The position numbers were made by a program, and so were the translations under genes. A stretch of DNA of 42,418 bases from an uncultured Planctomycetia bacterium. Lineage in GTDB: Bacteria; Omnitrophota; Gorgyraeia; Duberdicusellales; Duberdicusellaceae. The stretch is from NCBI GenBank assembly GCA_964609315.1, contig CAZSRG010000004.1, forward strand, positions 1 to 42,418, written 5' to 3'. This document shows positions 1 through 41,884 of this stretch, piece by piece. The notes beneath the pieces were generated by a model that saw only the letters and a program-made list of their open reading frames with translations, was not told the origin of the DNA and did not search any database. How positions within the stretch are numbered: position 1 is the first letter of the stretch; every line of letters starts with the position of its first letter.

Positions 1-81
1 CAATTCGGCTATAGACTTTTTCTTCGAAAAAGTCTAAGTCTCATTGATTAAAATTTACCCGCGCATACTCTTAATTATTTT

Positions 82-1485: not shown

Positions 1486-1575
1486 ACCTAATCCTCACTT
1501 TCTATAATCATCCGTTCTGTCAAGAATATTTTTGTTATTACGGACGGGCTCTTAACTCTTGGCTCTCATTCTTTA

Positions 1576-1640
1576 CTATCAACTATCAACTATCAACTAT
1601 CAGCTATCAGCTATGAGCCATGAGCTATCAGCCATTAGCT
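1576..1640. repeat. degenerate heptamer tandem array (ctatcaa/ctatcag/ccatgag type)
   Basis: About 9 consecutive 7-nt units read directly. The gagccatgagctat-agcca segment recurs at 35990-36013. Confidence 0.85.
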
Positions 1641-5492: not shown

Positions 5493-6467
5493 TTAACGCA
5501 GAATTCTATTTACTAAATCCTCCGGGCTGTATCCTTCACGAGAAAAATTAAATATTTCTCTGCCTTCAAAAAGATTAGAACCCGCGGCCGCGCCCTGCCG
5601 GAAAGCAAGATCCCTATTACCGGCAAATCCTTTTTGAAAATATACATCTGAATTTATCATATCTCCGCAGGAAAAACAAAAATCATAACCTAACCTCAGA
5701 GTCTCATCAACCTTAATCGCGCTGTTACGAATTAAAGCAGGGGTATCTTTCACAATGTCTGTATCCGGCGAAAGCACCGTATCTAAAAACAGTAAATCGC
5801 AAGCTAAGAATTTACCCGAAGACATCTTTACGGCTCTCACTCTGGATTCTCCTAAGGCTTCGCTAATATTTTCACCGGGAAGAAAATCTATACCCTTTCC
5901 TCTGAAGATAGAGGCTATTTTATCTTTGTATTCCGAAGGGAAAGAGTTAAATTCAGGAATTATGGCCTTAATTTCCTTATTGCAAATACTCCTGATTTTC
6001 AAAGATAGATCAACTGACATCAAAGTTTCACCATAAACGACAATGTGATTAAACATCCTGATGCTTTCTTTTAACCCTGAAGGCTTTACCCTCCCTAAAT
6101 AATAGACGCCCTCTTTATATTCACCGGCTATGCCGAGTTTTTTAGGCTTTAGGCCGCAGGCTAAAACTAACTTATCGAAAGACAAAGGAGTCCCTTTTTT
6201 CAAAAAGACTTTTTTCTTTTCGAAATTTACTCTTACTGCTTTGTCATTAATGATTTCTATCCCGGGAAAGATTTTTCTTAATTCTTCAAAAGATACAAAA
6301 AAATCTGTATCCGAAACCTTTCCGGCCAGCCAGTCCGATAAAAGGCACTTACGAAAAGGAAACGGTTCTTTTTCAATCAAAGAAACGTTAATACCTTCCT
6401 TATCTCTGCTTATATGCTCAATACAAGCACTTCCTGATATCCCTCCGCCTATAATAACTACTTTCAT
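5493..6467 (-). CDS. FAD-dependent pyridine nucleotide-disulfide oxidoreductase family protein
   Basis: N-terminal Rossmann motif VVIIGGGISGSA. I place the start at the ATG at 6465-6467 (MKVVIIGGG), not the longer track ORF. The second dinucleotide-binding motif looks degenerate. Confidence 0.6.
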   Translation of the reverse strand: MKVVIIGGGISGSACIEHISRDKEGINVSLIEKEPFPFRKCLLSDWLAGKVSDTDFFVSFEELRKIFPGIEIINDKAVRVNFEKKKVFLKKGTPLSFDKLVLACGLKPKKLGIAGEYKEGVYYLGRVKPSGLKESIRMFNHIVVYGETLMSVDLSLKIRSICNKEIKAIIPEFNSFPSEYKDKIASIFRGKGIDFLPGENISEALGESRVRAVKMSSGKFLACDLLFLDTVLSPDTDIVKDTPALIRNSAIKVDETLRLGYDFCFSCGDMINSDVYFQKGFAGNRDLAFRQGAAAGSNLFEGREIFNFSREGYSPEDLVNRILR

Positions 6468-7732: not shown

Positions 7733-8062
7733 AAAACTCTAAACTCTTCAGCCATAGGCTGATTCTAAACAAATCCTGAAAGCAAACTCTAAATTCTAAC
7801 CAAATCCTAAATCCTAATTTCTAAATTCTAAATAAATTCTAAATTTCAATCTCAAATGTTCTAAACTTTATTTTGGACTCTGCATCTTTCTGTTTTGGTC
7901 ATTTGATATTATTTAGCCTGCCTGCGTCAAGGCTTCCCTCGGCTTCGCCGAGAGGCGAGCGCCGAGAGGCAAGCGGCAGACAGGTATTTAGGGTTTATTT
8001 ATTATTTGGCATTCCGGCCTCTGTCCTTATGTATGATATCAAGACCTGACACCTGATACTGA
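7733..8062. repeat. family-1 element (mosaic, subtype A-like) with embedded GC-rich hairpin
   Basis: ctaaa heptad arm, a ctcttcagccataggctgat module shared with 38148-38170, GC hairpin 7927-7984, and right arm tatttagggtttatttattatttggc. Confidence 0.8.
7927..7984. repeat. GC-rich hairpin module, long version
   Basis: cctgcctgcgtcaaggcttccctcggcttcgccgagaggcgagcgccgagaggcaagcggcagacagg. Homologous in reverse complement to 12744-12797 and carries an internal cgccgagaggc duplication. Confidence 0.8.
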
Positions 8063-8497: not shown

Positions 8498-8520
8498 AAC
8501 ATCCTCCTTTTCCACACTTT

Positions 8521-8735
8521 GGTATTATCAAGAATATTTTTGTTCTCTAAAACTCTAAACCCGAAACTCTAAATAAACCCCAAACATAAAACCTCAAACT
8601 CAAAACGGTAATAAATATAATACTCTTTGTTTTGGGTTTTGTGTTTCCTTCATTTTGAATTTGTTTACCCCGTTAGAGAATTTTGTCTAACATAGATTCT
8701 CTCTAACGGGGTTTAGGATTTAGAATTTAGGATTT
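8521..8735 (+). repeat. family-1 element, subtype B
   Basis: Core is aaaacggtaataaatataatactctttgttttggg. Arms are of aaac/ctaaa heptads versus tttagg heptads. The right arm overlaps the last codons of trmD. Confidence 0.85.
8668..8711. repeat. hairpin insert (ccccgttagagaa...ttctctctaacgggg) in the right arm of the family-1 element
   Basis: Imperfect stem of about 13 bp. It sits between ..gaatttgttta and tttaggatttag, the same relative site as the other inserts. Confidence 0.75.
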
Positions 8736-9476
8736 AGTGTTTCTTCCCCTTCTGCCTTCTGTAACAGGTGTCTGTCCTCTTTTATCCTTTAACAAAAGGT
8801 CCGGCCTTCTAACCATAGTCCTTTGTAAAGCCTGTTTTTCCCTCCAGTCCTTTATCCGCTTATGGTTACCCGAAAGAAGGACTGAAGGGACTCTCCATCC
8901 TTTAAAAATTCCCGGCTTAGTATAATCAGGATAATCAAGAAGCCTTTTTTCAAAACTTTCGTCTTTTACTGAATCAGGATTGCCGGGCACGCCCGGAATA
9001 AGCCTTGCCAAACAGTCAACCAATACCATAGCGGGAATTTCTCCTCCGGAAAGTATATAATCTCCTATGGATATTTCTTCATCAACTAAATGTTCCCTGA
9101 CTCTCTCGTCAACGCCCTCATAACGGCCGCAGATAAGAATAAGATGTTTCTTCTTAACCAGTCTTCTACCTTCTTTCTGAGTTAAGGCCTTCCCCTGAGG
9201 ACTTAAAAGAACAGTCCTTATATTCTTCCCGGATTTACTATATAACTTCTTTACTTTCTCTACAGCCCTGAATATTGGCTGGCACTGTAAAACCATACCC
9301 GGGCCGCCCCCATAAGGAGACGCGTCAACTTTTTTATGCTTATTATCTGTATAATCTCTTAAATTATGAACAGCTATATCGAGAAGTTTTTTGTCCCTGG
9401 CTATCTTTACCGTTCCGGAGGAAAAGACTTCCCGAAACATTTCGGGGAATATAGTAATTATATCTATCCGCATCAT
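8727..9476 (-). CDS. trmD: tRNA (guanine37-N1)-methyltransferase
   Basis: 249 aa with MRIDIITIFPEMF and the LSGGEIPAMVLVD SPOUT-knot motifs. The last codons and stop lie inside an intergenic repeat arm. Confidence 0.9.
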   Translation of the reverse strand: MMRIDIITIFPEMFREVFSSGTVKIARDKKLLDIAVHNLRDYTDNKHKKVDASPYGGGPGMVLQCQPIFRAVEKVKKLYSKSGKNIRTVLLSPQGKALTQKEGRRLVKKKHLILICGRYEGVDERVREHLVDEEISIGDYILSGGEIPAMVLVDCLARLIPGVPGNPDSVKDESFEKRLLDYPDYTKPGIFKGWRVPSVLLSGNHKRIKDWREKQALQRTMVRRPDLLLKDKRGQTPVTEGRRGRNTKS

Positions 9477-12681: not shown

Positions 12682-12710
12682 ATCTTTTCTTTATATTTTC
12701 CTTACATTTA

Positions 12711-12931
12711 GAAAATTAAACTCTAAACTCAAAATCCTAAATCCCTGTCTGCCGCTCGCCTCTCGGCGAAACCGATGGAAACCTTGGCACAGGCAGGCTA
12801 AATAAACACAAAATGAAAGAAAACACAAAAACCAAAACAAAGAACATTATATTTATTATCGTTTTGGGTTTGAGACATTTGAGTTTTAGATTTATTTAGA
12901 GTTTCGAGTTTAGGACTTAGAGTTTAAGATT
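12711..12931 (-). repeat. family-1 element, subtype B, inverted relative to the others
   Basis: The reverse complement of its core aligns with the cores at 8560-8665 and 21830-21900. Carries the GC hairpin at 12744-12797. Confidence 0.85.
12744..12797. repeat. GC-rich hairpin module
   Basis: cctgtctgccgctcgcctctcggcgaaaccgatggaaaccttggcacaggcagg, the reverse-complement homologue of 7927-7984. Confidence 0.8.
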
Positions 12932-12952
12932 ATACAATTGTCTATTTATCTT

Positions 12953-19013: not shown

Positions 19014-19035
19014 AACTAATACCTCTCTAATAATT

Positions 19036-19214
19036 CCGTTCTGTCAAAAACATTTTTATTTTCTAAAACTCTAAACACCAAACCCGAAACTCTAAATAAA
19101 TCTAAAATCACAAACTCAAAATTCAAAACATTCATCATCTTCTATCTTTATATTGTTTTGGAATTTGGATTTTCTTCATTTTGAGTTTATTTAGAATTTA
19201 GGATTTAGGATTTT
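19036..19214 (+). repeat. family-1 element, subtype B
   Basis: Starts with ccgttctgtcaaaaacatttttatt and has ctaaa heptads. The right arm is ttcttcattttgagtttatttagaatttaggatttagg. Confidence 0.85.
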
Positions 19215-19250
19215 CTCCCCCCTCATATCAACGTAATGGACTCCAAATAT

Positions 19251-20488: not shown

Positions 20489-21745
20489 CTATGCCTCCTT
20501 AAAGATATCTTCAGAAAAAGAAACTCCTCTCTTGAAAAACTTATCCATAAACTTAGGTTTAAGTCCGGTAGGTTTAAACCTTCCTAAAACCCTGCCTGAG
20601 GGATCAAACCCTTCCTGCTCAAAAACAAATAAGTCCCTGCACATAGATCGGTCTTCCCCTTCGGCCACCTCGCTTATGCGGGTAATCTTACGGGACCCGT
20701 CAACCAACTGGTCCTGCTGGACAACTAAATCCAAACCGTGCGAAATCTGTTTTCTTATTATCCATTCCGAAAGATTAGTCCCGGAATATAAAACCATAGT
20801 CTCTAAACGGTTAATGACATCTTCCGGCGAAGAAGCATGGATTACCGCCAGAGCCCCGGAATGGCCGCTGTTTAATGACTGGAGAAAGTCAAGAGCCTCA
20901 GCGCCGCGTATTTCGCCTAAGATAATCCGTGTAGGCCTCATACGCAAAGTATTTATAAACAGTTCCTTAGTAGTAATTTCTCCCCTGCCTTCAATATTCG
21001 GGCCTCGGGTAAGAAGGCGCACAACATGGCCCTGCCTAAGATGAAGTTCTAAGGCATCTTCAATAGTTATAATCCTCTCACTTGAATCAATGTACGAAGA
21101 AAGCACTTCCAAAGTAGTGGTCTTACCCACGCCGGTAGCTCCTGAAAAAACAATATTTACTTTTGCTTTAACACAAGCTTTGAGAAATACCGCCATATCA
21201 TTGTTGAGAGTCCCCATTTCAGTTAAATCTTCTATTTTCTCTATCTGTTTCAAAAACTTTCTTATTGTAATACTGGCCCCTCCGACAGATAAGGGAGGAA
21301 GAATCACATTCACCCTGGAACCGTCAGGAAGGGAAAAGTCAACATAGGGATAAGACTCATCTACTCTCCTTCCGGTGGGCCTTATCATCCGCTCAACTAT
21401 ATACCTTAAATGGTTTTCATCGTCGAACTGCACATCAGCAAGAGTCTTACGGCCGGATTTCTCAATATAAATCTTATGCGGGCCGTTTACCATAATTTCG
21501 GTAACATAAGGATCATCCGCAAATTTCTGAAGAGGGCCCCATCCCAAAAGGTCATTTACCAATTCTCCGGCCAGTTCTTCCTGCTCGGAAGAAGGTATTT
21601 CAACGCCCTCATCTCTCTGAATAACTTCAAATATCCTGCTTACTCTCTGCCGGACTTCACTCTCATCCAAAGCGTTATCTTTCATCTTTCCATACCCTAA
21701 GAACAACCTCTGCCTAAGAATCTTCTTTATTTCTTTTTTATCCAT
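20489..21745 (-). CDS. CpaF/TadA-family secretion ATPase, paralogue 2
   Basis: 418 aa with Walker A GATGVGKTT, ERIITIEDALE, PTRIILGEIRG and VIHAS. Its stop lies 2 nt before the proS start. Confidence 0.8.
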   Translation of the reverse strand: MDKKEIKKILRQRLFLGYGKMKDNALDESEVRQRVSRIFEVIQRDEGVEIPSSEQEELAGELVNDLLGWGPLQKFADDPYVTEIMVNGPHKIYIEKSGRKTLADVQFDDENHLRYIVERMIRPTGRRVDESYPYVDFSLPDGSRVNVILPPLSVGGASITIRKFLKQIEKIEDLTEMGTLNNDMAVFLKACVKAKVNIVFSGATGVGKTTTLEVLSSYIDSSERIITIEDALELHLRQGHVVRLLTRGPNIEGRGEITTKELFINTLRMRPTRIILGEIRGAEALDFLQSLNSGHSGALAVIHASSPEDVINRLETMVLYSGTNLSEWIIRKQISHGLDLVVQQDQLVDGSRKITRISEVAEGEDRSMCRDLFVFEQEGFDPSGRVLGRFKPTGLKPKFMDKFFKRGVSFSEDIFKEA

Positions 21746-21767
21746 TCCACCATCCCCCGCTACTATT

Positions 21768-21903
21768 CAAACTCTAAATCCTAAACTCGAAACTCTAAAC
21801 TCTAAATAAATCCCAAACTTAAATCTTTTAAACTCAAAACAATAAATATAATACTCTTTGTTTTGGGTTTTGGGTTTTGGATTTTGTGCTTTCTTCATTT
21901 TGA
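21768..21903 (+). repeat. family-1 element, subtype B, left part (interrupted by X1)
   Basis: Ends ...ttcttcattttgag, then GTTAAC of X1 begins. The expected continuation (a)gaatttaggatttagaattt resumes at 22113. Confidence 0.85.
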
Positions 21904-22112
21904 GTTAACCGGGAAAATGCTGTTGAGTGTGCGAAATATCCATAACACCTAGTAATCTAAATAATTACATTAAACGGACGTTGTATTAAAAAGTACACAG
22001 CATTTTCCCCGTAGGTAACCTCAGTCCTATCCGCCTTTCCCCCGCCTACGGCGTGGTAAACGCGGGGCTGACCCTGCGGGCAAATAATGCTAACCGCATT
22101 ATTTGGGTTAAC
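21904..22112 (+). repeat. element X1: 209-nt candidate structured RNA or miniature mobile element bounded by GTTAAC
   Basis: GTTAAC at both ends. A perfect 13-bp long-range stem pairs 21911-21923 (gggaaaatgctgt) with 21997-22009. Terminal 10-bp hairpin at 22081-22105. Homologous in reverse complement to 41607-41884. Confidence 0.8.
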
Positions 22113-25465: not shown

Positions 25466-25657
25466 GACAAATATATATACATCGCGCGCCCGATAAAAAC
25501 TCTAAACTCCAAATCCTAAATTCTAAATAAACTCAAAATTCAAATGTTCAAATGTTCAAAACAAACTTCTTTTCAATGAGTTATGAAGAACGTTTTGAAT
25601 TTTAATCATTTTGATTTTGGATTTGTTTAGGTTTTAGAGTTTAGGATTTAGGGTTTA
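25466..25657 (+). repeat. family-1 element between dxr and cdsA
   Basis: The left flank is identical in pattern to 1641-1680. Has ctaaa heptads, a caaatgttcaaatgttcaaaac centre and the right arm tttgtttaggttttagagtttaggatttagggttta. Confidence 0.85.
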
Positions 25658-25677
25658 CATGTCTGTGTATTCAATAT

Positions 25678-26514: not shown

Positions 26515-27226
26515 ACCTTCTCTCCCTCATTTTAAAAGAGTCCAGGGCTTTATCAAACTCTCCGGCTGTGAAATCGGGCCATAGGACATTGGTAAAATAC
26601 AACTCGGCATAAGCTATGCGCCAAAGCATAAAATTGCTTATCCGCTCCTCTCCTGAAGTGCGTATTAATAAGTCCACATCCGGAATAAACGGATCATAGA
26701 GATACCCTTGAAAGAACCTTTCATCTAAAGACTTTAGGCTTAAGGAACCTTCTTTAAAATCCTCCGCTATTCTCTTAGCAGCAAAAACGATTTCATCCCT
26801 CCCCCCGTAGTTAAAAGCTATGTTCAGGATGATTTTATCATTATCTTTTGTTTCCTCAACAGCTTCATCTATTCCCGATATTAAATCTTCAGGCAGGCCT
26901 CTTCTCGAGCCCATAACATTAAAGCGGATATCTTTATCACCCTTATTTTCAGACAGGTATTTTTTGAAAGAAGAGAACAAGAAATCAATTTCCTCCTTTG
27001 GCCTTGACCAGTTCTCGGTAGAAAAAGCAAACAAGCTCAGTATTCGGACTCCTCTATCCTTAGCAGATTTAATCACCTTTTGGACATTATCTATCCCTCT
27101 CTTGTGGCCAAAATTCCTGGGCAAGCCTCTTTTCTCCGCCCAACGGCCGTTCCCGTCCATTATTAAGGCTACATGATAAGGAACCGCTGATAATTTACTC
27201 ATTTTATTATTATTTTTTATCGCCAT
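26501..27226 (-). CDS. uppS: undecaprenyl (isoprenyl) diphosphate synthase
   Basis: 241 aa with IMDGNGRWA and the RTSGEERISNFMLWR motifs. Confidence 0.9.
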   Translation of the reverse strand: MAIKNNNKMSKLSAVPYHVALIMDGNGRWAEKRGLPRNFGHKRGIDNVQKVIKSAKDRGVRILSLFAFSTENWSRPKEEIDFLFSSFKKYLSENKGDKDIRFNVMGSRRGLPEDLISGIDEAVEETKDNDKIILNIAFNYGGRDEIVFAAKRIAEDFKEGSLSLKSLDERFFQGYLYDPFIPDVDLLIRTSGEERISNFMLWRIAYAELYFTNVLWPDFTAGEFDKALDSFKMRERRFGKV

Positions 27227-27290
27227 TAGCCATTCGCTATTCGCTCTTGGCTATTCGCTATTCGCTATTTGCCATTTGCCATTAGGCCCC
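27221..27290. repeat. degenerate heptamer tandem array (ccattag/ccattcg/ctattcg type)
   Basis: About 9-10 consecutive 7-nt units. The related short array ctatttgccattcgctattta lies at 1853-1875. Confidence 0.85.
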
Positions 27291-28381: not shown

Positions 28382-28407
28382 AAGGTCCCCCTTATTCTTA
28401 ATCACGT

Positions 28408-28600
28408 ATTGTCAAAGCTATCTTTGTTTTCTAAAACTCTAAACTCTAAATCCAAAACTCTAAATAAACCTAAAACTCAAATGCTTTAAACTCAAAACAT
28501 TAATAAATATACTGCTTTTGCTTTAAACTATATTGTTTTGGGTTTTGGGTTTTCTTCATTTTGAGTTTGTTTAGGGTTTAGAATTTAGGATTTTCTCCCC
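28408..28600 (+). repeat. family-1 element, subtype B
   Basis: Starts attgtcaaagctatctttgtt and has ctaaa heptads. The right arm is ttcttcattttgagtttgtttagggtttagaatttaggatttt. Confidence 0.85.
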
Positions 28601-28645
28601 GCTACTTATACTTTTTCATACAACTCTTGACACTACTTTTGAACT

Positions 28646-31893: not shown

Positions 31894-33483
31894 CTATGAT
31901 ATTTTTATAAATTTAACGTTGCTGAAGTCGCTGTCCGAAAGTATTTCTTCTATAATTTCTCCGGTCAAAGGTGTATCTATTGTCAGGGCGGTAATTGCCA
32001 GCCCTTCTTCTTTCTTACGGCCAAAACTCATTGTGGCAATATTAATCTTACGTCTGCCTAACATAGCGCCTAACTTTCCTATAACCCCCGGCTTATCGCG
32101 GTTGGAAAGAAAAATCATATACTTAGCCGGGCTGATTTCTAAATAAAAGCCGTTAATTTTAACAATCCGGGGATAATGGTTCGCGAATAAAGCGCCCTCT
32201 AAGCTAATCTCTTCTTTATCGGATTTAATCCTCACCGCTATTGAATTTAAGTAATCTGTCCCTTCCGAAGATTTCGTAGATTCTATCTTGATACCTCTGT
32301 CCTTAGCTAAATTAAAGGCGTTAACAAAATTTACCGTTCCTTCCAAAATAGGCGAAAGCACGCCTTTAACTAAAGAAGAAGTAACCGGGATAAGTTTAAA
32401 AGAAGTAATATCTCCGGCATAACTAATCCAGACTTCTTTTATCCGCCCCTCAATCAGCTGAGAAGAAACCATGCCGAGTTTTTCAGCTAAACTTATATAA
32501 GGAGAAAGAGCGGTAAAAGTTTCCGGGTCAAGAGAAGGAAAATTAACCGCGTTCTTTAAGGCTCTGCCCTTAAGGACATCCTTTACACAATGAGCAATTT
32601 CCACCGCTACATTTATCTGGGCCTCTTTGGTAGAAGCTCCTAAATGCGGGCTTAAGACAATATTATCTAATCTAAATAAGGGATTATCTTTTTCAGGGGG
32701 TTCTTTTTCATAAACATCCAAAGCGGCAAAGGATATTTTCTTATCCTTTAAGGCGAGGTATAAAGCCTTTTCACTAATTATCCCCCCCCTGGCGCAGTTT
32801 ATAACCCGGGCATTAGGTTTCATAATTGAGAATTCATCGTCAGAAATCAAACCGCGGGTTTCTTCAGTCAAAGGAGTATGAACCGTGATATAATCCGCCT
32901 CTGAAAGCAGTTTTTTCAACTCAACTATTTCTATATCCAGCTTCTTAGCCACATCTTCAGAGATAAAGGGGTCATAAGAAACCACCTTCATTCCAAAAGA
33001 TAGAGCCCGTTTAGAAATCTCTCTTCCAATACGGCCTAACCCTATAACACCAAGAGTCTTGTTATAAAGCTCCGTCCCTTTAAACTTAGAACGTTCCCAC
33101 TTACCTGCCCTTACGGATTTGTCGGCTAAAGCAACGTTCCTTGACATAGCCAACATCAAAGCAAAGGCCTGTTCACAGGTAGAAATGGAATTACCCGAAG
33201 GAGCGTTCATAACAATAATCCCCTGCTTAGTAGCAGATTCAATATCAACGTTATCCAACCCGACACCGGCTCTGCCGATTGCTTTCAGTCTGGCCGCTTT
33301 ACTAAGTATATCCCCGGTCAGTTTTGTCTGGCTGCGGATAACAATAGCATCATATCCTCCAATAATTGAAGATAATTCTTCGGGAGTTAAGCCGGTCTTG
33401 ACATCTACCTGAATATCCTTCTCCGCTTTTAAGATTTCAACCCCTTCTTCCGCTAATTTATCACTCACAAGGATTTTAAGCAT
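31894..33483 (-). CDS. serA: D-3-phosphoglycerate dehydrogenase (long form with ACT domain)
   Basis: 529 aa with the NAD motif GVIGLGRIGREI and a C-terminal ACT-like region. Confidence 0.9.
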   Translation of the reverse strand: MLKILVSDKLAEEGVEILKAEKDIQVDVKTGLTPEELSSIIGGYDAIVIRSQTKLTGDILSKAARLKAIGRAGVGLDNVDIESATKQGIIVMNAPSGNSISTCEQAFALMLAMSRNVALADKSVRAGKWERSKFKGTELYNKTLGVIGLGRIGREISKRALSFGMKVVSYDPFISEDVAKKLDIEIVELKKLLSEADYITVHTPLTEETRGLISDDEFSIMKPNARVINCARGGIISEKALYLALKDKKISFAALDVYEKEPPEKDNPLFRLDNIVLSPHLGASTKEAQINVAVEIAHCVKDVLKGRALKNAVNFPSLDPETFTALSPYISLAEKLGMVSSQLIEGRIKEVWISYAGDITSFKLIPVTSSLVKGVLSPILEGTVNFVNAFNLAKDRGIKIESTKSSEGTDYLNSIAVRIKSDKEEISLEGALFANHYPRIVKINGFYLEISPAKYMIFLSNRDKPGVIGKLGAMLGRRKINIATMSFGRKKEEGLAITALTIDTPLTGEIIEEILSDSDFSNVKFIKIS

Positions 33484-34606
33484 AATATACCTCCTGAAAA
33501 GCTTTTAAACTAACTCCTTTTTCTATTGAAACGCCTGAATCCGCTAAGACTTTCTCCAAAACCGACAGGCACATAACAATATCCGAAGGGTTTATATATC
33601 CCATATGGGCTATTCTCACAATTTTTCCTTTCAAATGCCCCTGCCCTCCGGCAATACTTATCCCGTATTCTTTTCTCATCTTTCTAACAATAGACGCGGT
33701 ATCTATTTCTTTAACCAGGGCCGCGGTAACCGAAGATGACGGGCTTTTAGAAAGAATCTCAAAACCCAAAGAAGTTAAAGCTGACCTGAGCGCCCGTCCC
33801 ATTTTCCCAAAATCTTTCCAGCGGGTTTCCAGCCCCTCTTCTCTAATAACCCTCAAGCTCTCCCTTAAAGCAAATATCAGGCTCACCGAAGGAGTAAAAG
33901 GAGTATCATTTTTCTCCCAGGACTTGGAAGCCTTTTTCAAGTCAAAATAGTATTTAGGTAAATCTGATTCTTCCAAAAACTTCTCAGCTTTTTTGCTGAA
34001 AGAAAGAAACGCCAATCCCGGAGGAAGCATAAGTCCCTTTTGAGAACCTGAAACAACCACATCAACTCCCCATTCATCAGTTTTTAAAACATCCTGTCCT
34101 AACCCGCTTACCGCGTCAACAACACAAAGCAGGCCTTTTTTACGGATAACTTCGGCAATGCTCTTTATGTCATAAACCGTAGCAGTAGACGTTTCACAAA
34201 GAGTGGTATATACAGCTTTAATTCCGGAATCCGCGTCTAAGAGCTTTTCTATATCTTCAGATATAGGAGCGTTTCCCCACTCAACATTTAGAGGAACAGT
34301 TTCAACTCCAAAACTTTCGCATATTTCCTTCCATCGTTCGCCGAATTTTCCACCCATAACAATCAGGGCTTTATCCTCTTTCTTAAGAAAGTTTGACACC
34401 GCGGCTTCCATTGCTCCTGTGCCGGAAGAAGAAAAGATTAAAACAGGATTTTTTGTCTGAAAAAGGTACTTAAGCCCTTCATGGGCTTCTTTCAATACTT
34501 CCCTAAACTCATCAGTCCTGTGGTGAATAATGTCTCTGCCTAAAGCAGCCTTTACTTCAGGGAGCAAAGGCGAAGGCCCCGGAGTCATCAAATAACTATG
34601 TTTCAT
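33476..34606 (-). CDS. class V (AGXT-type) aminotransferase, probable phosphoserine/serine-pyruvate aminotransferase
   Basis: Has the PLP-lysine context SGSQKGLM and overlaps serA by 8 nt. I place the start at the ATG at 34604-34606 (MKHSYLMTPGP), which has GGAGAGG upstream. The TTG-extended track ORF runs into repeat Y-A. Confidence 0.8.
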   Translation of the reverse strand: MKHSYLMTPGPSPLLPEVKAALGRDIIHHRTDEFREVLKEAHEGLKYLFQTKNPVLIFSSSGTGAMEAAVSNFLKKEDKALIVMGGKFGERWKEICESFGVETVPLNVEWGNAPISEDIEKLLDADSGIKAVYTTLCETSTATVYDIKSIAEVIRKKGLLCVVDAVSGLGQDVLKTDEWGVDVVVSGSQKGLMLPPGLAFLSFSKKAEKFLEESDLPKYYFDLKKASKSWEKNDTPFTPSVSLIFALRESLRVIREEGLETRWKDFGKMGRALRSALTSLGFEILSKSPSSSVTAALVKEIDTASIVRKMRKEYGISIAGGQGHLKGKIVRIAHMGYINPSDIVMCLSVLEKVLADSGVSIEKGVSLKAFQEVYYA

Positions 34607-34618
34607 TTCTCCTCTCCT

Positions 34619-34749
34619 CAATGAGGCCGCAGCTTATGGAGTCCGAAGGATGACATAAGCTGCATGGCCGAATTGATCCCGCCGAAGGTTGGTAAATTGT
34701 CAACGATAATTTACCAACATCTTCTCTGAGGCGGGATTACCTTAATATT
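34619..34749 (-). repeat. element Y-A: two-hairpin structured unit directly upstream of the aminotransferase SD
   Basis: Plus-strand order is caatgag, hairpin 1 (ggcc gcagcttat...ataagctgc..ggcc), gaattgatcccgccgaagg, hairpin 2 (ttggtaaatt..aatttaccaa), then catcttctctgaggcgggattaccttaatatt. Confidence 0.85.
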
Positions 34750-34932
34750 ATAAATCAGCTATCTGTAATTACTCTGGCTGTTGATAGATAATTCTTTCGT
34801 TTTAGCATAATTAGCGAGTCTGCCATTCGCCATCCTCTGTATTTGTTAACAATTCAACCATTTAACAATATATTAATGTATTAATCTCTTCTCTCATTCT
34901 CTGACTCCTGCCCTCTGACTTCTGTCCTCTGC

Positions 34933-35526
34933 CTATTTATGCGGCAGGATAACTTCATCAATCAAGCCGTACTGTTTAGCTTCATCCGCGCTCATAAAAT
35001 AATCTCTGTCAGTATCTTCTTTTACTTTCTTAACCGTTTTTTTGGTATGAGCAGAGAGGATTCCATTTACCTTTTCTCTCAGCCTGAGTATTTCCTTTGT
35101 CTGAATAGAGATATCTTCCGCTGTCCCCTGAGCTCCGCCCCAAGGCTGATGAATCATAATCCGGGAATTAGGCAGAGCAAAACGTTTACCATCTTTGCCC
35201 GCTGCCAAGAGTAAAGCGCCCATACTCGCCGCCTGGCCTATACAGTAAGTAGCCACATCCGGTTTAACAAACTGCATCGTATCATATACAGCCAATCCCG
35301 CGGTGATGGAACCACCCGGAGTGTTGACATACACGCTTATATCTTTTGAAGGATCTTCCATCTGGAGAAAAAGCATTTGAGCGATAACCACATTCGCTAC
35401 GTTATCATCTATCGGTGTCCCGACAAAGATTATCCTGTCTTTTAACAAACGGGAATAAATATCATATGCCCTTTCAGTCCGCTGAGTCTGCTCAATTACT
35501 ATAGGAACATACCCCTGATTTTTCAT
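34933..35526 (-). CDS. clpP: ATP-dependent Clp protease proteolytic subunit
   Basis: Catalytic contexts GQAASMGA and MIHQP. I place the start at the ATG at 35524-35526 ([10 protein letters not shown]), which has GAGGAGG upstream. The track ORF start runs into repeat Y-B. Confidence 0.95.
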
Positions 35527-35538
35527 AAACAACCTCCT

Positions 35539-35670
35539 CAATGAGGCCGCAACTTATGGAATCCGAAGGATGACATAAGCTGCATGGCCGAATTGATCCC
35601 GCCGAAGGCTAGGGTAATTATCAAAGATAATTACCCTGCATCTTCTCTGAGGCGGGATTACCTTAATATT
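35539..35670 (-). repeat. element Y-B, directly upstream of the clpP SD
   Basis: Hairpin 1 matches Y-A except for 2 substitutions. Hairpin 2 is the alternative version agggtaatta..taattaccct. Confidence 0.85.
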
Positions 35671-35681
35671 TATTAATTAAC

Positions 35682-35813
35682 CAATGAGACTGTGATTTTT
35701 TATTATTCCCAATGATAAAAAATCACTTAGTCGAATTGATCCCGCCGAAGGCTAGGGTAATTATCAAAGATAATTACCCTGCATCTCCTCTGAGGCGGGA
35801 TTTCCTTAATATT
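35682..35813 (-). repeat. element Y-C
   Basis: Same conserved single-stranded blocks. Hairpin 1 is replaced by the unrelated 12-bp stem gtgattttttat/ataaaaaatcac. Hairpin 2 matches Y-B. Confidence 0.85.
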
Positions 35814-35823
35814 TACAAATTAG

Positions 35824-35951
35824 CAGTGAGCGCACAACTTACAGAACGAAGTGATTGTAAGTTGTCCGCGCGAATTGATCCCGCCGAAGGTTGGTAAATT
35901 GTCAACGAGAATTTACCAACATCTTCTCTGAGGCGGGATTACCTTAATATT
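35824..35951 (-). repeat. element Y-D
   Basis: Hairpin 1 is replaced by gcgc-acaacttaca/tgtaagttgt-gcgc. Hairpin 2 matches Y-A. Confidence 0.85.
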
Positions 35952-35960
35952 ATAAATTAG

Positions 35961-36013
35961 CTCTTTGCTCTTTGTTACTATCTCTTTGCTAAGAGCCATG
36001 AGCTATGAGCCAA
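35961..36013. repeat. degenerate heptamer tandem array (ctctttg/ccatgag type)
   Basis: Reads ctctttg ctctttg ttactat ctctttg ctaagag ccatgag ctatgag. Shares the ccatgagctat-agcc segment with 1606-1640. Confidence 0.75.
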
Positions 36014-36907
36014 TTACCCCAAATTGCTCAAAATAAACCCTATAACAGATTCATATATGTTATTGTTATCAAAGTTAAGGTTTTCCTTTTTGGCAATAGA
36101 TTCCAAAATATAATACAGCCTGACCTGTTCTTCAGCTAAAGCTTCCGCTTTACGCGATATTTCTTCCTGCTGTTTTTTTATCTCCTCTTCAGAAACACCT
36201 TTAGACCTTAAATCAACAACAGCCTGAGTAATAAACCTCTGTTTCTGCTCGTTAACCACGGAAGAAGGAAGCTGGAATTTCAGTTCAGAAAGAAGCCTGC
36301 CGGTTATTTCCTTTTCAACAGCCCGCCTTCTCTGAACGGCCTTATTAAGGTATAATTCCGAAGATAGAGCTTTCCTAAACTCGGGCTCATCTTTATATCC
36401 CGCCCAAAGAGAGACAAACCTGTTATCAATGTCACTTTCATTTTTACCGGTTATCTTAGTTAAATTATCCTTAAACCGGCCAATGAACTTATCAATTTCT
36501 TTCTCATCTTCCTCTATGCTGTCAATCTTAACTTTAATTTTATAGTACATTCTCCTGGCAACTTCTATCTCGGGCTTTACATCCACTAAAGCTGTAAAAG
36601 ACAATTTTCCTCCCTTGTAATCAATCTCTTTTATGTCCGGAGAAGCAACCGGTTCCAATTTCTTCTCTTCCAAAACCCGGCTGTAATAATGAGGCACCGC
36701 GTCTTTGACTAAATTATCTCTGACTAATTCGGGAAACCGCTGTTCAATCAAATCCAAAGGAGCTTTACCCTTACGGAACCCGGGAATATTAACTGTGTTG
36801 CTCAACTTGTTAAGGACTTTACTTTTAACCTCTCCCAAAGAATCCTTTGATACGGTTATTCTTATATTCCGCTTAACTTCTCCATCCTTTTTAATCTCAA
36901 CTTCCAC
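36014..36907 (-). CDS. tig: trigger factor lacking the PPIase domain
   Basis: 297 aa. The N-terminal ribosome-binding motif GFRKGKAP and the C-terminal arm region are recognisable. No FKBP-like segment lies between them. Confidence 0.75.
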   Translation of the reverse strand: MEVEIKKDGEVKRNIRITVSKDSLGEVKSKVLNKLSNTVNIPGFRKGKAPLDLIEQRFPELVRDNLVKDAVPHYYSRVLEEKKLEPVASPDIKEIDYKGGKLSFTALVDVKPEIEVARRMYYKIKVKIDSIEEDEKEIDKFIGRFKDNLTKITGKNESDIDNRFVSLWAGYKDEPEFRKALSSELYLNKAVQRRRAVEKEITGRLLSELKFQLPSSVVNEQKQRFITQAVVDLRSKGVSEEEIKKQQEEISRKAEALAEEQVRLYYILESIAKKENLNFDNNNIYESVIGFILSNLG

Positions 36908-36940
36908 TAAATTCCTCCTATTTTATAACACCTGCACTAT

Positions 36941-37188
36941 CAAACTCTAAATCCTAAATTCTAAACTCTAAACAATTTCAAATATCAAATGTTCTAAATC
37001 CTAAACTAAACTCTAAATTCTAATACCAAATGTTCTAAACATTGTTTTGAATTTTGTATTTTGAACATTTGAGATTGTTTAGTATTTAGAATTTAGTGCT
37101 TAGGATTTATTTATCATTTGGTCATCTGACTTCTGCCCTTTGTCTTCTATCAATGTGTAGGCCTGACCCCTATTCCGGTATTTGTGTT
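36941..37188. repeat. family-1 element, subtype A, plus right-flank module
   Basis: 36961-37124 differs at 3 positions from 1696-1859. The right flank tttggtcatctgacttctgccc...caatgtgtaggcctgac recurs at 38311-38392. Confidence 0.9.
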
Positions 37189-37228
37189 TAGGACTTAAGA
37201 TTATTCCCTCTAAGTGCTCCTGATAATA

Positions 37229-37951: not shown

Positions 37952-38246
37952 AAAACTTCACTCCATCTTACACTCCGTAAATGTCGTGGATTATCTTTAC
38001 GAAGTATAATACCGAGTTATTCTTTTGCTCCCCCACTAATAACTCGCCATTAATCACTAACTACTAAATTCTCTAAACAAAGTCTGAAAGCAAATTCTAA
38101 ATTCTAAACTCTAAACAATTTCAAATATCAAATGTTCTAAATTCTAAACTCTTCAACTATAGGCTGATCCGCCTCAGGCGGAAAATTCTAATACTGTTCT
38201 AAACATTGTTTTGAATTTTGTATTTTGAACATTTGAGATTGTTTAG

Positions 38247-38276
38247 CCTGCCTGCGCCAAGGTTTCGGCAGGCAGG
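38247..38276. repeat. 30-bp GC-rich hairpin module cleanly inserted into the family-1 right arm
   Basis: cctgcctgcgccaaggtttcggcaggcagg is present here and absent at the matching junction gattgtttag|tatttag (37081-37083). Confidence 0.9.
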
Positions 38277-38340
38277 TATTTAGGATTTAGTGCTTAGGAT
38301 TTATTTATTATTTGGCCATCTGACTTCTGCTCTCTGCCTG

Positions 38341-41606: not shown

Positions 41607-41884
41607 GTTAACCCAAATAACGCGGTTAGCATTATTTGCCCGCCTGTGCCCGCAAGGGTACCTGTGCCCGCAAGGATACAAGGGTAAAAGGCCGGGATTA
41701 CCTAAGGGGAAAATGCTGTGTACTCTTTAATACAACCTCTGTTTAATACAACTATTTAGGCTGCCAGGCGTTATGAGCCCTGTTAGAAAAAGTGTATCTT
41801 TTTTCTCTAACCCCTAACAGGGTGAGCATCTTGCGTTTTCAAACGCGAAACCTGCCCTTAGGATACAGCATTTTCCCGGTTAAC
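41607..41884 (-). repeat. element X2: 278-nt copy of X, minus-strand sense, between the VR-like gene region and kdsA
   Basis: GTTAAC at 41607-41612 and 41879-41884. The 13-bp stem pairs 41707-41719 with 41865-41877. Terminal hairpin at 41614-41638. Has the conserved block ttgtattaaa-agtacacagcattttcccc-taggtaa. Confidence 0.8.

Follow-up and report, generated by a model that had tools for sequence, protein, structure and literature searches.

REP elements are repeats of 20 to 40 nt with a conserved GTAG which lie 3′ of genes, usually in alternating orientation, and stabilize the upstream mRNA; the RNase III sites of the phage T7 early genes (R-sites) are single hairpins of one sequence family at which cleavage has been demonstrated. 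BOX elements of Streptococcus pneumoniae (boxA-boxB(n)-boxC) are modular, vary in length between strains, and are regarded as largely parasitic; they are predicted to form stem-loops when co-transcribed, and are thought to influence the expression of neighboring genes (PMC3049150). The Correia elements (CREE) of Neisseria are intergenic and transcribed, are bound or cut by RNase III, and can alter the expression of adjacent genes (PMC2649163). BOX elements, which it resembles in kind only, are the closest known kind to the repeat described here, followed by Correia elements.

We analyzed a window of 42,418 nt (positions 1 to 42,418 of CAZSRG010000004.1, an ENA metagenome contig) in which all genes are on the minus strand; homologues of its trigger factor assign the organism to Candidatus Omnitrophota. 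The 472 nt spacer between tig and clpP contains three head-to-tail units of about 138 to 140 nt (YD, YC, and YB in gene sense) which together span 35536-35955 on the minus strand, and a fourth unit, YA, stands singly 5′ of a serC-like gene. The four units register as repeat family D3 (4 copies in the window, at 34668, 35589, 35732, and 35870) and share a 19-mer, GAATTGATCCCGCCGAAGG, of which the window has 4 copies where chance would give 0.01; mean column identity in an alignment of the four is 77%. The initial annotation had described the three tandem units plus YA as sharing identical blocks while shuffling versions of two hairpins, and so they do: the blocks are invariant in the four-unit alignment, and the versions combine as 1a+2a in YA, 1a+2b in YB, 1c+2b in YC, and 1d+2a in YD. 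The parts, with scores from covariance model R1, are these:

36014-36907, minus strand: tig, trigger factor with Trigger_N and Trigger_C and without a PPIase domain, the gene 5′ of the array
35956-36013, minus strand: spacer from the tig stop codon to YD, with degenerate heptamers GCTCATA / GCAAAGA, outside the unit
35821-35955, minus strand: unit YD, first in the array in gene sense, 143.8 bits (R1)
35878-35939, minus strand: SL-A of YD, hairpin 2a
35824-35877, minus strand: SL-B of YD, hairpin 1d, GCGC clamp
35679-35817, minus strand: unit YC, 140.8 bits (R1)
35739-35801, minus strand: SL-A of YC, hairpin 2b, GGAG/CUUC including a G-U pair
35682-35738, minus strand: SL-B of YC, hairpin 1c, GACU/AGUC clamp
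35536-35674, minus strand: unit YB, last in the array, 149 bits (R1)
35596-35658, minus strand: SL-A of YB, hairpin 2b
35539-35595, minus strand: SL-B of YB, hairpin 1a, GGCC clamp
35533-35538, minus strand: Shine-Dalgarno (SD) sequence AGGAGG of clpP, read from the sequence, directly 3′ of CTCATTG
35526-35524, minus strand: ATG of clpP, read from the sequence
34933-35526, minus strand: clpP, the gene 3′ of the array
34616-34753, minus strand: unit YA (single), 159.5 bits (R1), 5′ of the class-V aminotransferase gene
34676-34737, minus strand: SL-A of YA, hairpin 2a
34619-34675, minus strand: SL-B of YA, hairpin 1a
34618-34614, minus strand: SD sequence AGGAG of the serC-like gene
34606-34604, minus strand: ATG of the serC-like gene
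33476-34606, minus strand: class-V aminotransferase (serC-like), the gene 3′ of YA, followed by serA

The 3′ end of YD is CTCACTG, followed by the linker to YC; the 3′ end of YB is CTCATTG and adjoins the clpP SD sequence.

We aligned 27 distinct full units (23 found in related contigs in addition to the 4 of the window) and obtained a consensus of 42 base pairs (RNAalifold). Read in gene sense, an AU-rich 5′ flank (..AAUAUUAAGGWA) is followed by two hairpins of 45 to 65 nt which are contiguous, with zero spacer: SL-A, of 24 to 25 bp with two bulges, and SL-B, of about 20 bp with a 2x2 loop. SL-A runs in the order AUCCCGCC, UCAGA bulge, GAAG, AU bulge, variable hairpin 2, CUUC, and GGCGGGAU, with A-U and U-A pairs plus CCCGCC/GGCGGG at its base and a G-C pair between the AU bulge and hairpin 2; SL-B runs CAAU, UC x UC internal loop, covarying 4-bp clamp, variable hairpin 1, and AUUG. 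Both hairpins had been glimpsed in the initial annotation, but incompletely: the CCCGCC/GGCGGG helix is real but runs on past the UCAGA bulge into GAAG/CUUC and hairpin 2, and hairpin 1 is real but its closing helix, CAAU/AUUG across the UC x UC internal loop, had been missed. Because SL-A and SL-B are adjacent, they could stack as one rod, and in such a stacked model the 5′ flank and the 3′ flank would exit side by side.

That the pairing is under selection, as had been proposed from the four units for a folded nucleic acid, is supported by the 27-unit alignment: i) compensatory changes that alter both sides occur at 21 of the 42 pairs; ii) 97.4% of cells pair, against 85.4% in shuffles; iii) the covariation score is 0.344, far above shuffles (0.125) and slid partners (at most 0.092); and iv) the clamp exists as GGCC/GGCC, GACU/AGUC, GCGC/GCGC, GCAC/GUGC, and GACC/GGUC, while the basal helix, mostly C-G in the wider alignment, also covaries, with U-A in one copy and A-U in another. 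The array folds far better than its shuffles on either strand (z = -10.7 for the gene strand, z = -11.8 for the other). Column identity reaches 0.96 to 0.99 in the basal helix, P1, the UC/UC loop, and the two bulges, but is 0.68 for the stems of the clamp and hairpin 1 and 0.57 for the loop of hairpin 1; conservation of CCTTCGGCGGGATCAATTC is partly built in because this block lay within the 19-mer used as search query, the remaining conserved parts being outside it. The claim that the hairpin-1 versions are unrelated in sequence did not hold, since 1a (CAGCUUAUG) and 1d (CAACUUACA) differ by compensated substitutions and intermediates occur in other copies. Covariation among paralogous repeat copies can reflect limits on spread, or a need to be harmless, besides RNA function.

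Two asymmetries favor an RNA read in gene sense. Well-aligned units have 15 G-U pairs on the gene strand against 5 A-C mismatches (22 against 13 in all units); the one hairpin-1 substitution between YA and YB (C to T on the gene strand) gives G-U on the minus-strand transcript, as had been noticed at the outset, and the difference from GGCC to GGCU in a nearly identical strain (a clpP-serC piece from a JGI sample) is again a wobble on the gene strand. Terminator-like sites (a hairpin plus a T-run) are present on the antisense (plus) strand only, at hairpin 2, so that reversed insertions would be selected against; the same scan rejected an intrinsic terminator inside the units on the gene (minus) strand, and no hairpin is followed by a U-tract in sense orientation, in agreement with the original description. 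The wobble asymmetry is modest, and a strand-specific mechanism acting on single-stranded DNA would predict it too if genes and replication run in the same direction. The SD sequence is predicted to be of middling accessibility (mean unpaired probability 0.5). We rejected a conserved switch that would sequester it, since its pairings in minimum-free-energy folds are idiosyncratic and involve downstream coding sequence.

The initial annotation had proposed a covariance-model search for further copies and a tabulation of the genes they precede. A 19-mer scan of metagenomes, combined with two covariance models (R1 and R2), shows that the element is not restricted to this locus: about 35 full units were found in Candidatus Omnitrophota, grouped into about 20 arrays that hold 1 to 5 units each. 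The metagenome scan returned 40 loci, of which 28 contain the element, mostly from the one JGI sample that also holds the species of the window; 31 R1 matches scored 80 bits or more, each in the same orientation as its downstream ORF, and every array faces its downstream gene, as expected from the sense-strand RNA originally favored. About 20 unrelated genes lie downstream, among them clpP, serC, a leuB/icd-like dehydrogenase, MetE, DapA, PFOR, ferredoxin, rpsK (S11), SecG, a DEAD-box helicase, acyl-CoA dehydrogenase, a pseudopilin, a PTS-EIIA/CBS protein, an AsnC regulator, an FmdB-type zinc ribbon, MscS, an SPFH protein, and H+-PPase, which excludes a metabolite-specific riboswitch. The gene upstream of the array is always co-directional in the arrays examined; in 9 of 17 cases, rpsM>rpsK and PFOR>ferredoxin among them, the array 5′ end falls -13 to +70 nt from the stop codon of that gene; and about 20 of 24 terminal units read CUCAUUG|AGGAG(G), then 5 to 9 nt, then AUG.

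Searches of other collections found no counterpart. Rfam 15 covariance models gave 0 matches at the gathering score in the window and 13 related loci, and at E up to 10 gave only chance-level matches to miRNA-type hairpins, with bits far below gathering; a distant blastn search against plasmids and phages found no match; a viral contig scan gave one chance match, inside coding DNA; a scan of genome contigs for CCCGCCTCAGAG-N20-50-CTTCGGCGGG gave only 5 single chance matches in G+C-rich genomes; no tRNA or tmRNA was found; and the literature searched (by sequence strings and for Omnitrophota repeats) contains no description. The repeat, which has no counterpart in Rfam or the literature searched, is previously undescribed.

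Like BOX, the units are composite intergenic repeats built of modules, whose tandem copies vary in number (three here, one in a close relative); unlike BOX, which has terminal inverted repeats and no fixed SD register, they consist of two adjacent irregular hairpins with invariant bulges, are strictly sense, and abut the SD sequence, and neither the phylum nor the sequence matches (there is no homology to boxA, boxB, or boxC). Like CREE, they are short multi-copy elements in intergenic regions, but CREE, being a MITE, has long inverted repeats at its termini, a duplicated TA, and an IHF site, and inserts in either orientation, features which full units lack; MITE-like head-to-head module pairs do exist in two contigs (L051 and L008), but these come from other lineages. 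The REP/BIME elements of enterobacteria and pseudomonads, which are RAYT-associated, are likewise multi-copy mosaics of hairpin modules in operon intergenic regions with compensatory stem changes, but our units are about 138 nt long, directly oriented, and 5′ of the SD sequence, and assignment to REP/BIME was rejected on the alignment, where the hairpins are 45 to 65 nt, variable in sequence, and without a conserved GTAG at the 5′ foot. The initial annotation had not recognized the units as any described riboswitch, leader, or REP class, and the Rfam result and the missing REP hallmark agree with this. T7 R-sites are also irregular hairpins with internal loops, intercistronic, just 5′ of the next ribosome-binding site, and present at many junctions of one genome, and SL-A and SL-B have the same structural features (an irregular hairpin of at least about 20 bp with an internal loop, lying between co-directional genes); the hairpin sequences here are highly diverse, and the likeness is a structural one.

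The lptC-lptB-tig-clpP-serC-serA block is syntenic across Omnitrophota, so that filled and empty junctions can be compared. Four compact relatives (L056-L059) have only 10 to 17 nt between tig and clpP and 11 to 30 nt between clpP and serC, an example being TAA-tca-AGGAGG-caggt-ATG, and neither R1 nor R2 detects the element at these junctions. The median spacer is 127 nt in the window versus 2 to 30 nt in the compact relatives, and the non-coding share of the span is 13% versus 3%. A relative whose Tig is 87% identical has one tig-clpP unit versus three in the window; the hairpin versions of that unit differ from those here, and its P1 has partly degenerated; the spacer 5′ of this unit is (AAATAGC)n, at a position matching the heptamer spacer here, and its serC unit has kept hairpin 1a while a foreign G+C-rich hairpin is inserted in SL-A. 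Because the compact relatives lack the element and the 87% relative has one unit versus three, the units are lineage-specific insertions between stop codon and SD sequence that were then amplified and recombined. The simplest history is insertion into the 2 to 5 nt gap between stop codon and SD sequence in tight operons, after which units multiplied locally and exchanged parts by recombination in their conserved blocks, this last step being supported by mosaic pairs such as YA/YD, with 99% identity in SL-A and 52% in SL-B. Copies at different loci are at most 95% identical and none are identical, and so there is no sign of recent bursts.

Such a history explains why the last unit abuts AGGAGG, namely because it was inserted between stop codon and SD sequence, without the SD sequence having to belong to the element. 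Strictly, the CUCAUUG|AGGAGG register is tighter than passive insertion into 2 to 5 nt requires, and this hints at a function, or at the SD sequence being part of a terminal unit variant. Comparison of filled and empty tig>clpP junctions revealed no target-site duplication, and no mobilizing enzyme or terminal inverted repeat accompanies full units at the loci examined. A MITE was rejected on the same grounds, the unit ends (GCTAATTT... and ...CTCATTG) not being inverted repeats and tig>clpP having no duplication.

Parts of the unit recur in other settings. A type II composite repeat of about 166 nt places the SL-B module (GGAUCAAUUC-hairpin-CUCAUUGAUU) behind other small hairpins; its copies are not followed by an SD sequence, lie in either orientation relative to genes and to the units described above (type I), and coincide with contig ends. 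The window begins with one:

1-49, plus strand: 3′ part of a type II repeat (SL-B module ending CTCATTGATT), 42.5 bits and E 8.5e-8 with R2, its 5′ end cut by the window edge

This copy is on the strand opposite all window genes, and is identical to full type II copies in five other contigs (L010, L028, L039, L043, and L044). Within contigs, type II lies opposite to type I in 5 cases and on the same strand in 2, and no transposase was found beside the type II copies examined. In other Omnitrophota, the head-to-head module pairs mentioned above are found in L008 and, 5′ of the H+-PPase gene, in L051, and the module is antisense between clpP and serC in L053. A minimal form, a CCGCC-UUCG-GGCGG hairpin followed by SL-B, in tandem, occurs in a contig from the Smithellaceae (Syntrophales) between an isochorismatase gene and mtrA/mtrB-like genes, 5′ of promoter-like sites of mtrA and adjoined by type II-like hairpins with GCAAGC loops; the core GGGAUCAAUUC-hairpin-CUCAUUGA is thus common to Omnitrophota and Syntrophales. 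In sum, these hairpin modules form a mosaic family which spreads, between phyla too, and only in the lineage of the window does it behave as a sense-only insert abutting the SD sequence.

The initial annotation had implied a regulatory RNA specific to tig-clpP. We see instead a dispersed repeat, absent at the equivalent junctions of other Omnitrophota and variable in copy number between close relatives, and on balance we judge the units probably to be a dispersed, modular, non-coding structured repeat of Candidatus Omnitrophota, REP/BOX-like, tolerated, and co-transcribed in sense. The units would be transcribed within the polycistronic mRNA, and selection may keep the stems paired so that each insert collapses to a compact stacked hairpin pair that is harmless or useful: folding would bring the upstream stop codon and the downstream SD sequence close together, the SD sequence being free in principle, and would avoid a long unstructured untranslated RNA open to attack by Rho or RNase. 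The invariant bulges and junctions may point to a trans-acting reader, whether the spreading machinery, an RNase, or an RNA-binding protein, and the units are probably also points of mRNA processing or stability. What is unusual about them is the two-hairpin unit with invariant bulges, the strict sense orientation together with the SD register, and a core module found in two phyla.

A dedicated RNA function is possible, and in practice it overlaps with a tolerated structured repeat. Each unit could be a cis-acting signal, the site of an endoribonuclease or RNA-binding protein that cuts or insulates cistrons, although we lean against this. Candidate enzymes would be RNase III, acting on the irregular 20 to 25 bp hairpins, and RNase E, acting in the AU-rich linker. 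Protective hairpins would then remain at the 3′ end of the upstream mRNA and at the 5′ end of the downstream mRNA, the latter beside a free SD sequence, and extra units would tune the effect. The near invariance of unpaired motifs while stems vary and covary speaks for such a signal, as do the strict sense orientation and fixed register with the SD sequence, the location of units within operons such as rpsM>rpsK and PFOR>ferredoxin, the retention of the SL-B module across two phyla, and a geometry of long intercistronic helices with internal loops which, by analogy, would suit RNase III as in phage T7. Against it, most Omnitrophota lack the element at equivalent junctions and relatives have gained or lost it; related copies are antisense, in 3′ regions, 5′ of promoters (Smithellaceae), or in inverted pairs; and no candidate protein has emerged. 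More ambitious still, and in our view doubtful, is that the units represent either a new operon-junction RNA module, in which the UCAGA bulge, the UC x UC loop, and the junction of SL-A with SL-B are recognized by a trans-acting protein or RNase and the module governs processing, stability, or translational coupling of many housekeeping cistrons at once, or a new mobile element that targets stop-codon/SD junctions.

We think it distinctly unlikely that the structure matters at the DNA level, with hairpins in single-stranded DNA as the substrate of a strand-specific enzyme such as an HUH/Y1 transposase (REP/RAYT or IS200/IS605-derived). The stems would then covary to suit transposition, and it would be the replication strand, not transcription, that biases unit orientation. 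A multi-copy repeat with modules and arrays, the inverted pairs in L051 and L008, a module in two phyla that suggests horizontal spread, and the fact that the genes and all four units of the window are on one strand would all fit, and the CAAU...AUUG helix flanking a hairpin resembles, by analogy, the guide/cleavage-site pairing at IS608 ends. Type II copies on either strand relative to type I within contigs (5 opposite, 2 same) nevertheless count against a single-stranded-DNA mechanism; the stems differ so greatly between copies in one genome that they are a poor fit to sequence-specific recognition; there is no GTAG-like conserved 5′ tetranucleotide and no transposase gene in the loci examined; and exact insertion at stop-SD junctions is left unexplained.

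A promoter cassette, in which the AT-rich 5′ flank (TTTATAATATTAAGG, in some cases TTGACA) would serve as promoter and transcripts would begin at each unit, stabilized by a 5′ hairpin, is very unlikely: one promoter-like match (GTAACA-18-TATAAT) does lie at the 5′ edge of YD, and TTGACA precedes the first units in L036, L039, and L043, but promoter-like sites number 9 against 8.3 in shuffles (no enrichment), TTGACA adjoins AATATT so that the -35/-10 spacing is wrong, and several arrays begin 0 to 20 nt past the upstream stop codon, or overlap it, in conserved operons. A ligand-sensing riboswitch, attenuator, or intrinsic terminator scarcely deserves credence. Some riboswitches do occur as tandem structured elements in 5′ regions, but the units have no Rfam match even at E up to 10, their downstream genes are functionally unrelated, no U-tract follows the hairpins in sense, no alternative fold conserved among them sequesters the SD sequence, and the variable parts are whole hairpins, not peripheral stems round a conserved pocket.

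Several other candidates were rejected. Integron attC sites would have RYYYAAC ... GTTRRRY core sites, which are absent from the unit ends, and the flanks are syntenic housekeeping genes; CRISPR, type III toxin-antitoxin, and reverse-transcriptase-associated ncRNA arrays were dismissed for the same neighbors and no associated protein. The AUG in GAAGAUG opens 6-codon frames that are unconserved between hairpin-2 versions, and a 61-aa plus-strand ORF at 35712-35897 lies inside the repeats. GGCGGGAUCAAUUC looks somewhat like a tRNA T-arm, and CUCAUUGA like boxA, but both likenesses were set aside as unsupported.

The repeat adds a strongly covarying nucleic-acid structure family from an uncultivated phylum; the R1 and R2 covariance models can be used to annotate it, and it accounts for assembly breaks and inflated spacers in these genomes. 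Compact operons, it appears, can take structured inserts exactly at the stop-codon/SD junction with the operon unbroken, which suggests a rule that an insert is tolerated or useful if folded as a compact rod holding the stop codon near the SD sequence. Should the invariant bulges be read by a trans-acting factor, the family would constitute a global layer of post-transcriptional control.

Spacers repeatedly carry a G+C-rich hairpin, GCCTGCCTGC...GCAGGCAGG, and related metagenome contigs (L-numbers) hold two-hairpin units, the ~140-nt repeats found between stop codon and Shine-Dalgarno sequence, in which this hairpin has been inserted, either in the GGGAU/CAAUUC linker or in place of hairpin 2; repeats are thus nested within repeats. 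The SL-B module, the second stem-loop of the unit, also occurs with several small hairpins in a second, high-copy composite repeat of ~166 nt (type II). Type II copies lie in either orientation, are not followed by a Shine-Dalgarno sequence, and coincide with contig ends; type II is therefore the probable cause of assembly breaks.

G+C-rich hairpins and type II copies
Window 38246-38276, about 7930-7990 and about 5560-5600: G+C-rich hairpin
L021 6474-6641; L050 3682-3813 (related contigs): G+C-rich hairpin within a two-hairpin unit
Window 1-49, plus strand: type II copy
L010 4440-4534: type II copy
L043 2929-3023 and 4378-4472: two type II copies
L039 71-165: type II copy
L044 26-120: type II copy
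L028 10307-10401: type II copy

A minimal module, consisting of a GC hairpin with a UUCG loop followed by GGGAUYAAUUC-hairpin-YUCAUURA, is common to Syntrophales and Omnitrophota. In a Syntrophales genome, tandem copies of this module, together with GCAAGC-loop hairpins, are flanked by an isochorismatase gene and mtrA/mtrB-like genes (Smithellaceae contig L060, 8490-8770; also L013, L035, L037, L047, L031, and L019), and near-identical copies are present at two or more different loci.

Shorter repeats were also seen: i) tandem heptamer arrays (GCTATCA, GCCATGA, AAATAGC) directly after stop codons, at window 1575-1640, 27220-27283, and 35960-36010, and in the clpP-serC spacer of the relative L050, where the array is much longer (about 200 nt); ii) an 18-nt CCTGTGCCCGCAAGGATA-like tandem repeat, recurrent in several contigs from one sample (window 41643-41679; L043 about 2760-2850; L044 about 200-300); and iii) the motif AACAAAAATATTCTTGACAGAACGGA (gene sense), which precedes three start codons by about 30 nt (window 1511-1536, 8519-8544, and 19035-19060) and is a possible promoter or operator common to them.

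The trigger factor of this phylum (tig, window 36014-36907; homologues are alike) has about 297 residues, with Trigger_N and Trigger_C but without the PPIase (FKBP) domain. Most other long window spacers are long imperfect hairpins made of heptamer repeats, AAACTCT/AAATTCT in one arm and TTTAGGA/TTTAGAG in the other; the lptB-tig spacer, of this type, folds with z = -5.7 relative to shuffled sequences.

Heptamer-hairpin spacers
Window 36908-37228, 1646-1873, 7762-8023, 8515-8742, 12685-12940
Window 19031-19223, 21745-21906, 25473-25670, 28399-28603, 38061-38339

These spacers are a repeat family separate from the two-hairpin units, and one by which operon junctions are likewise inflated.
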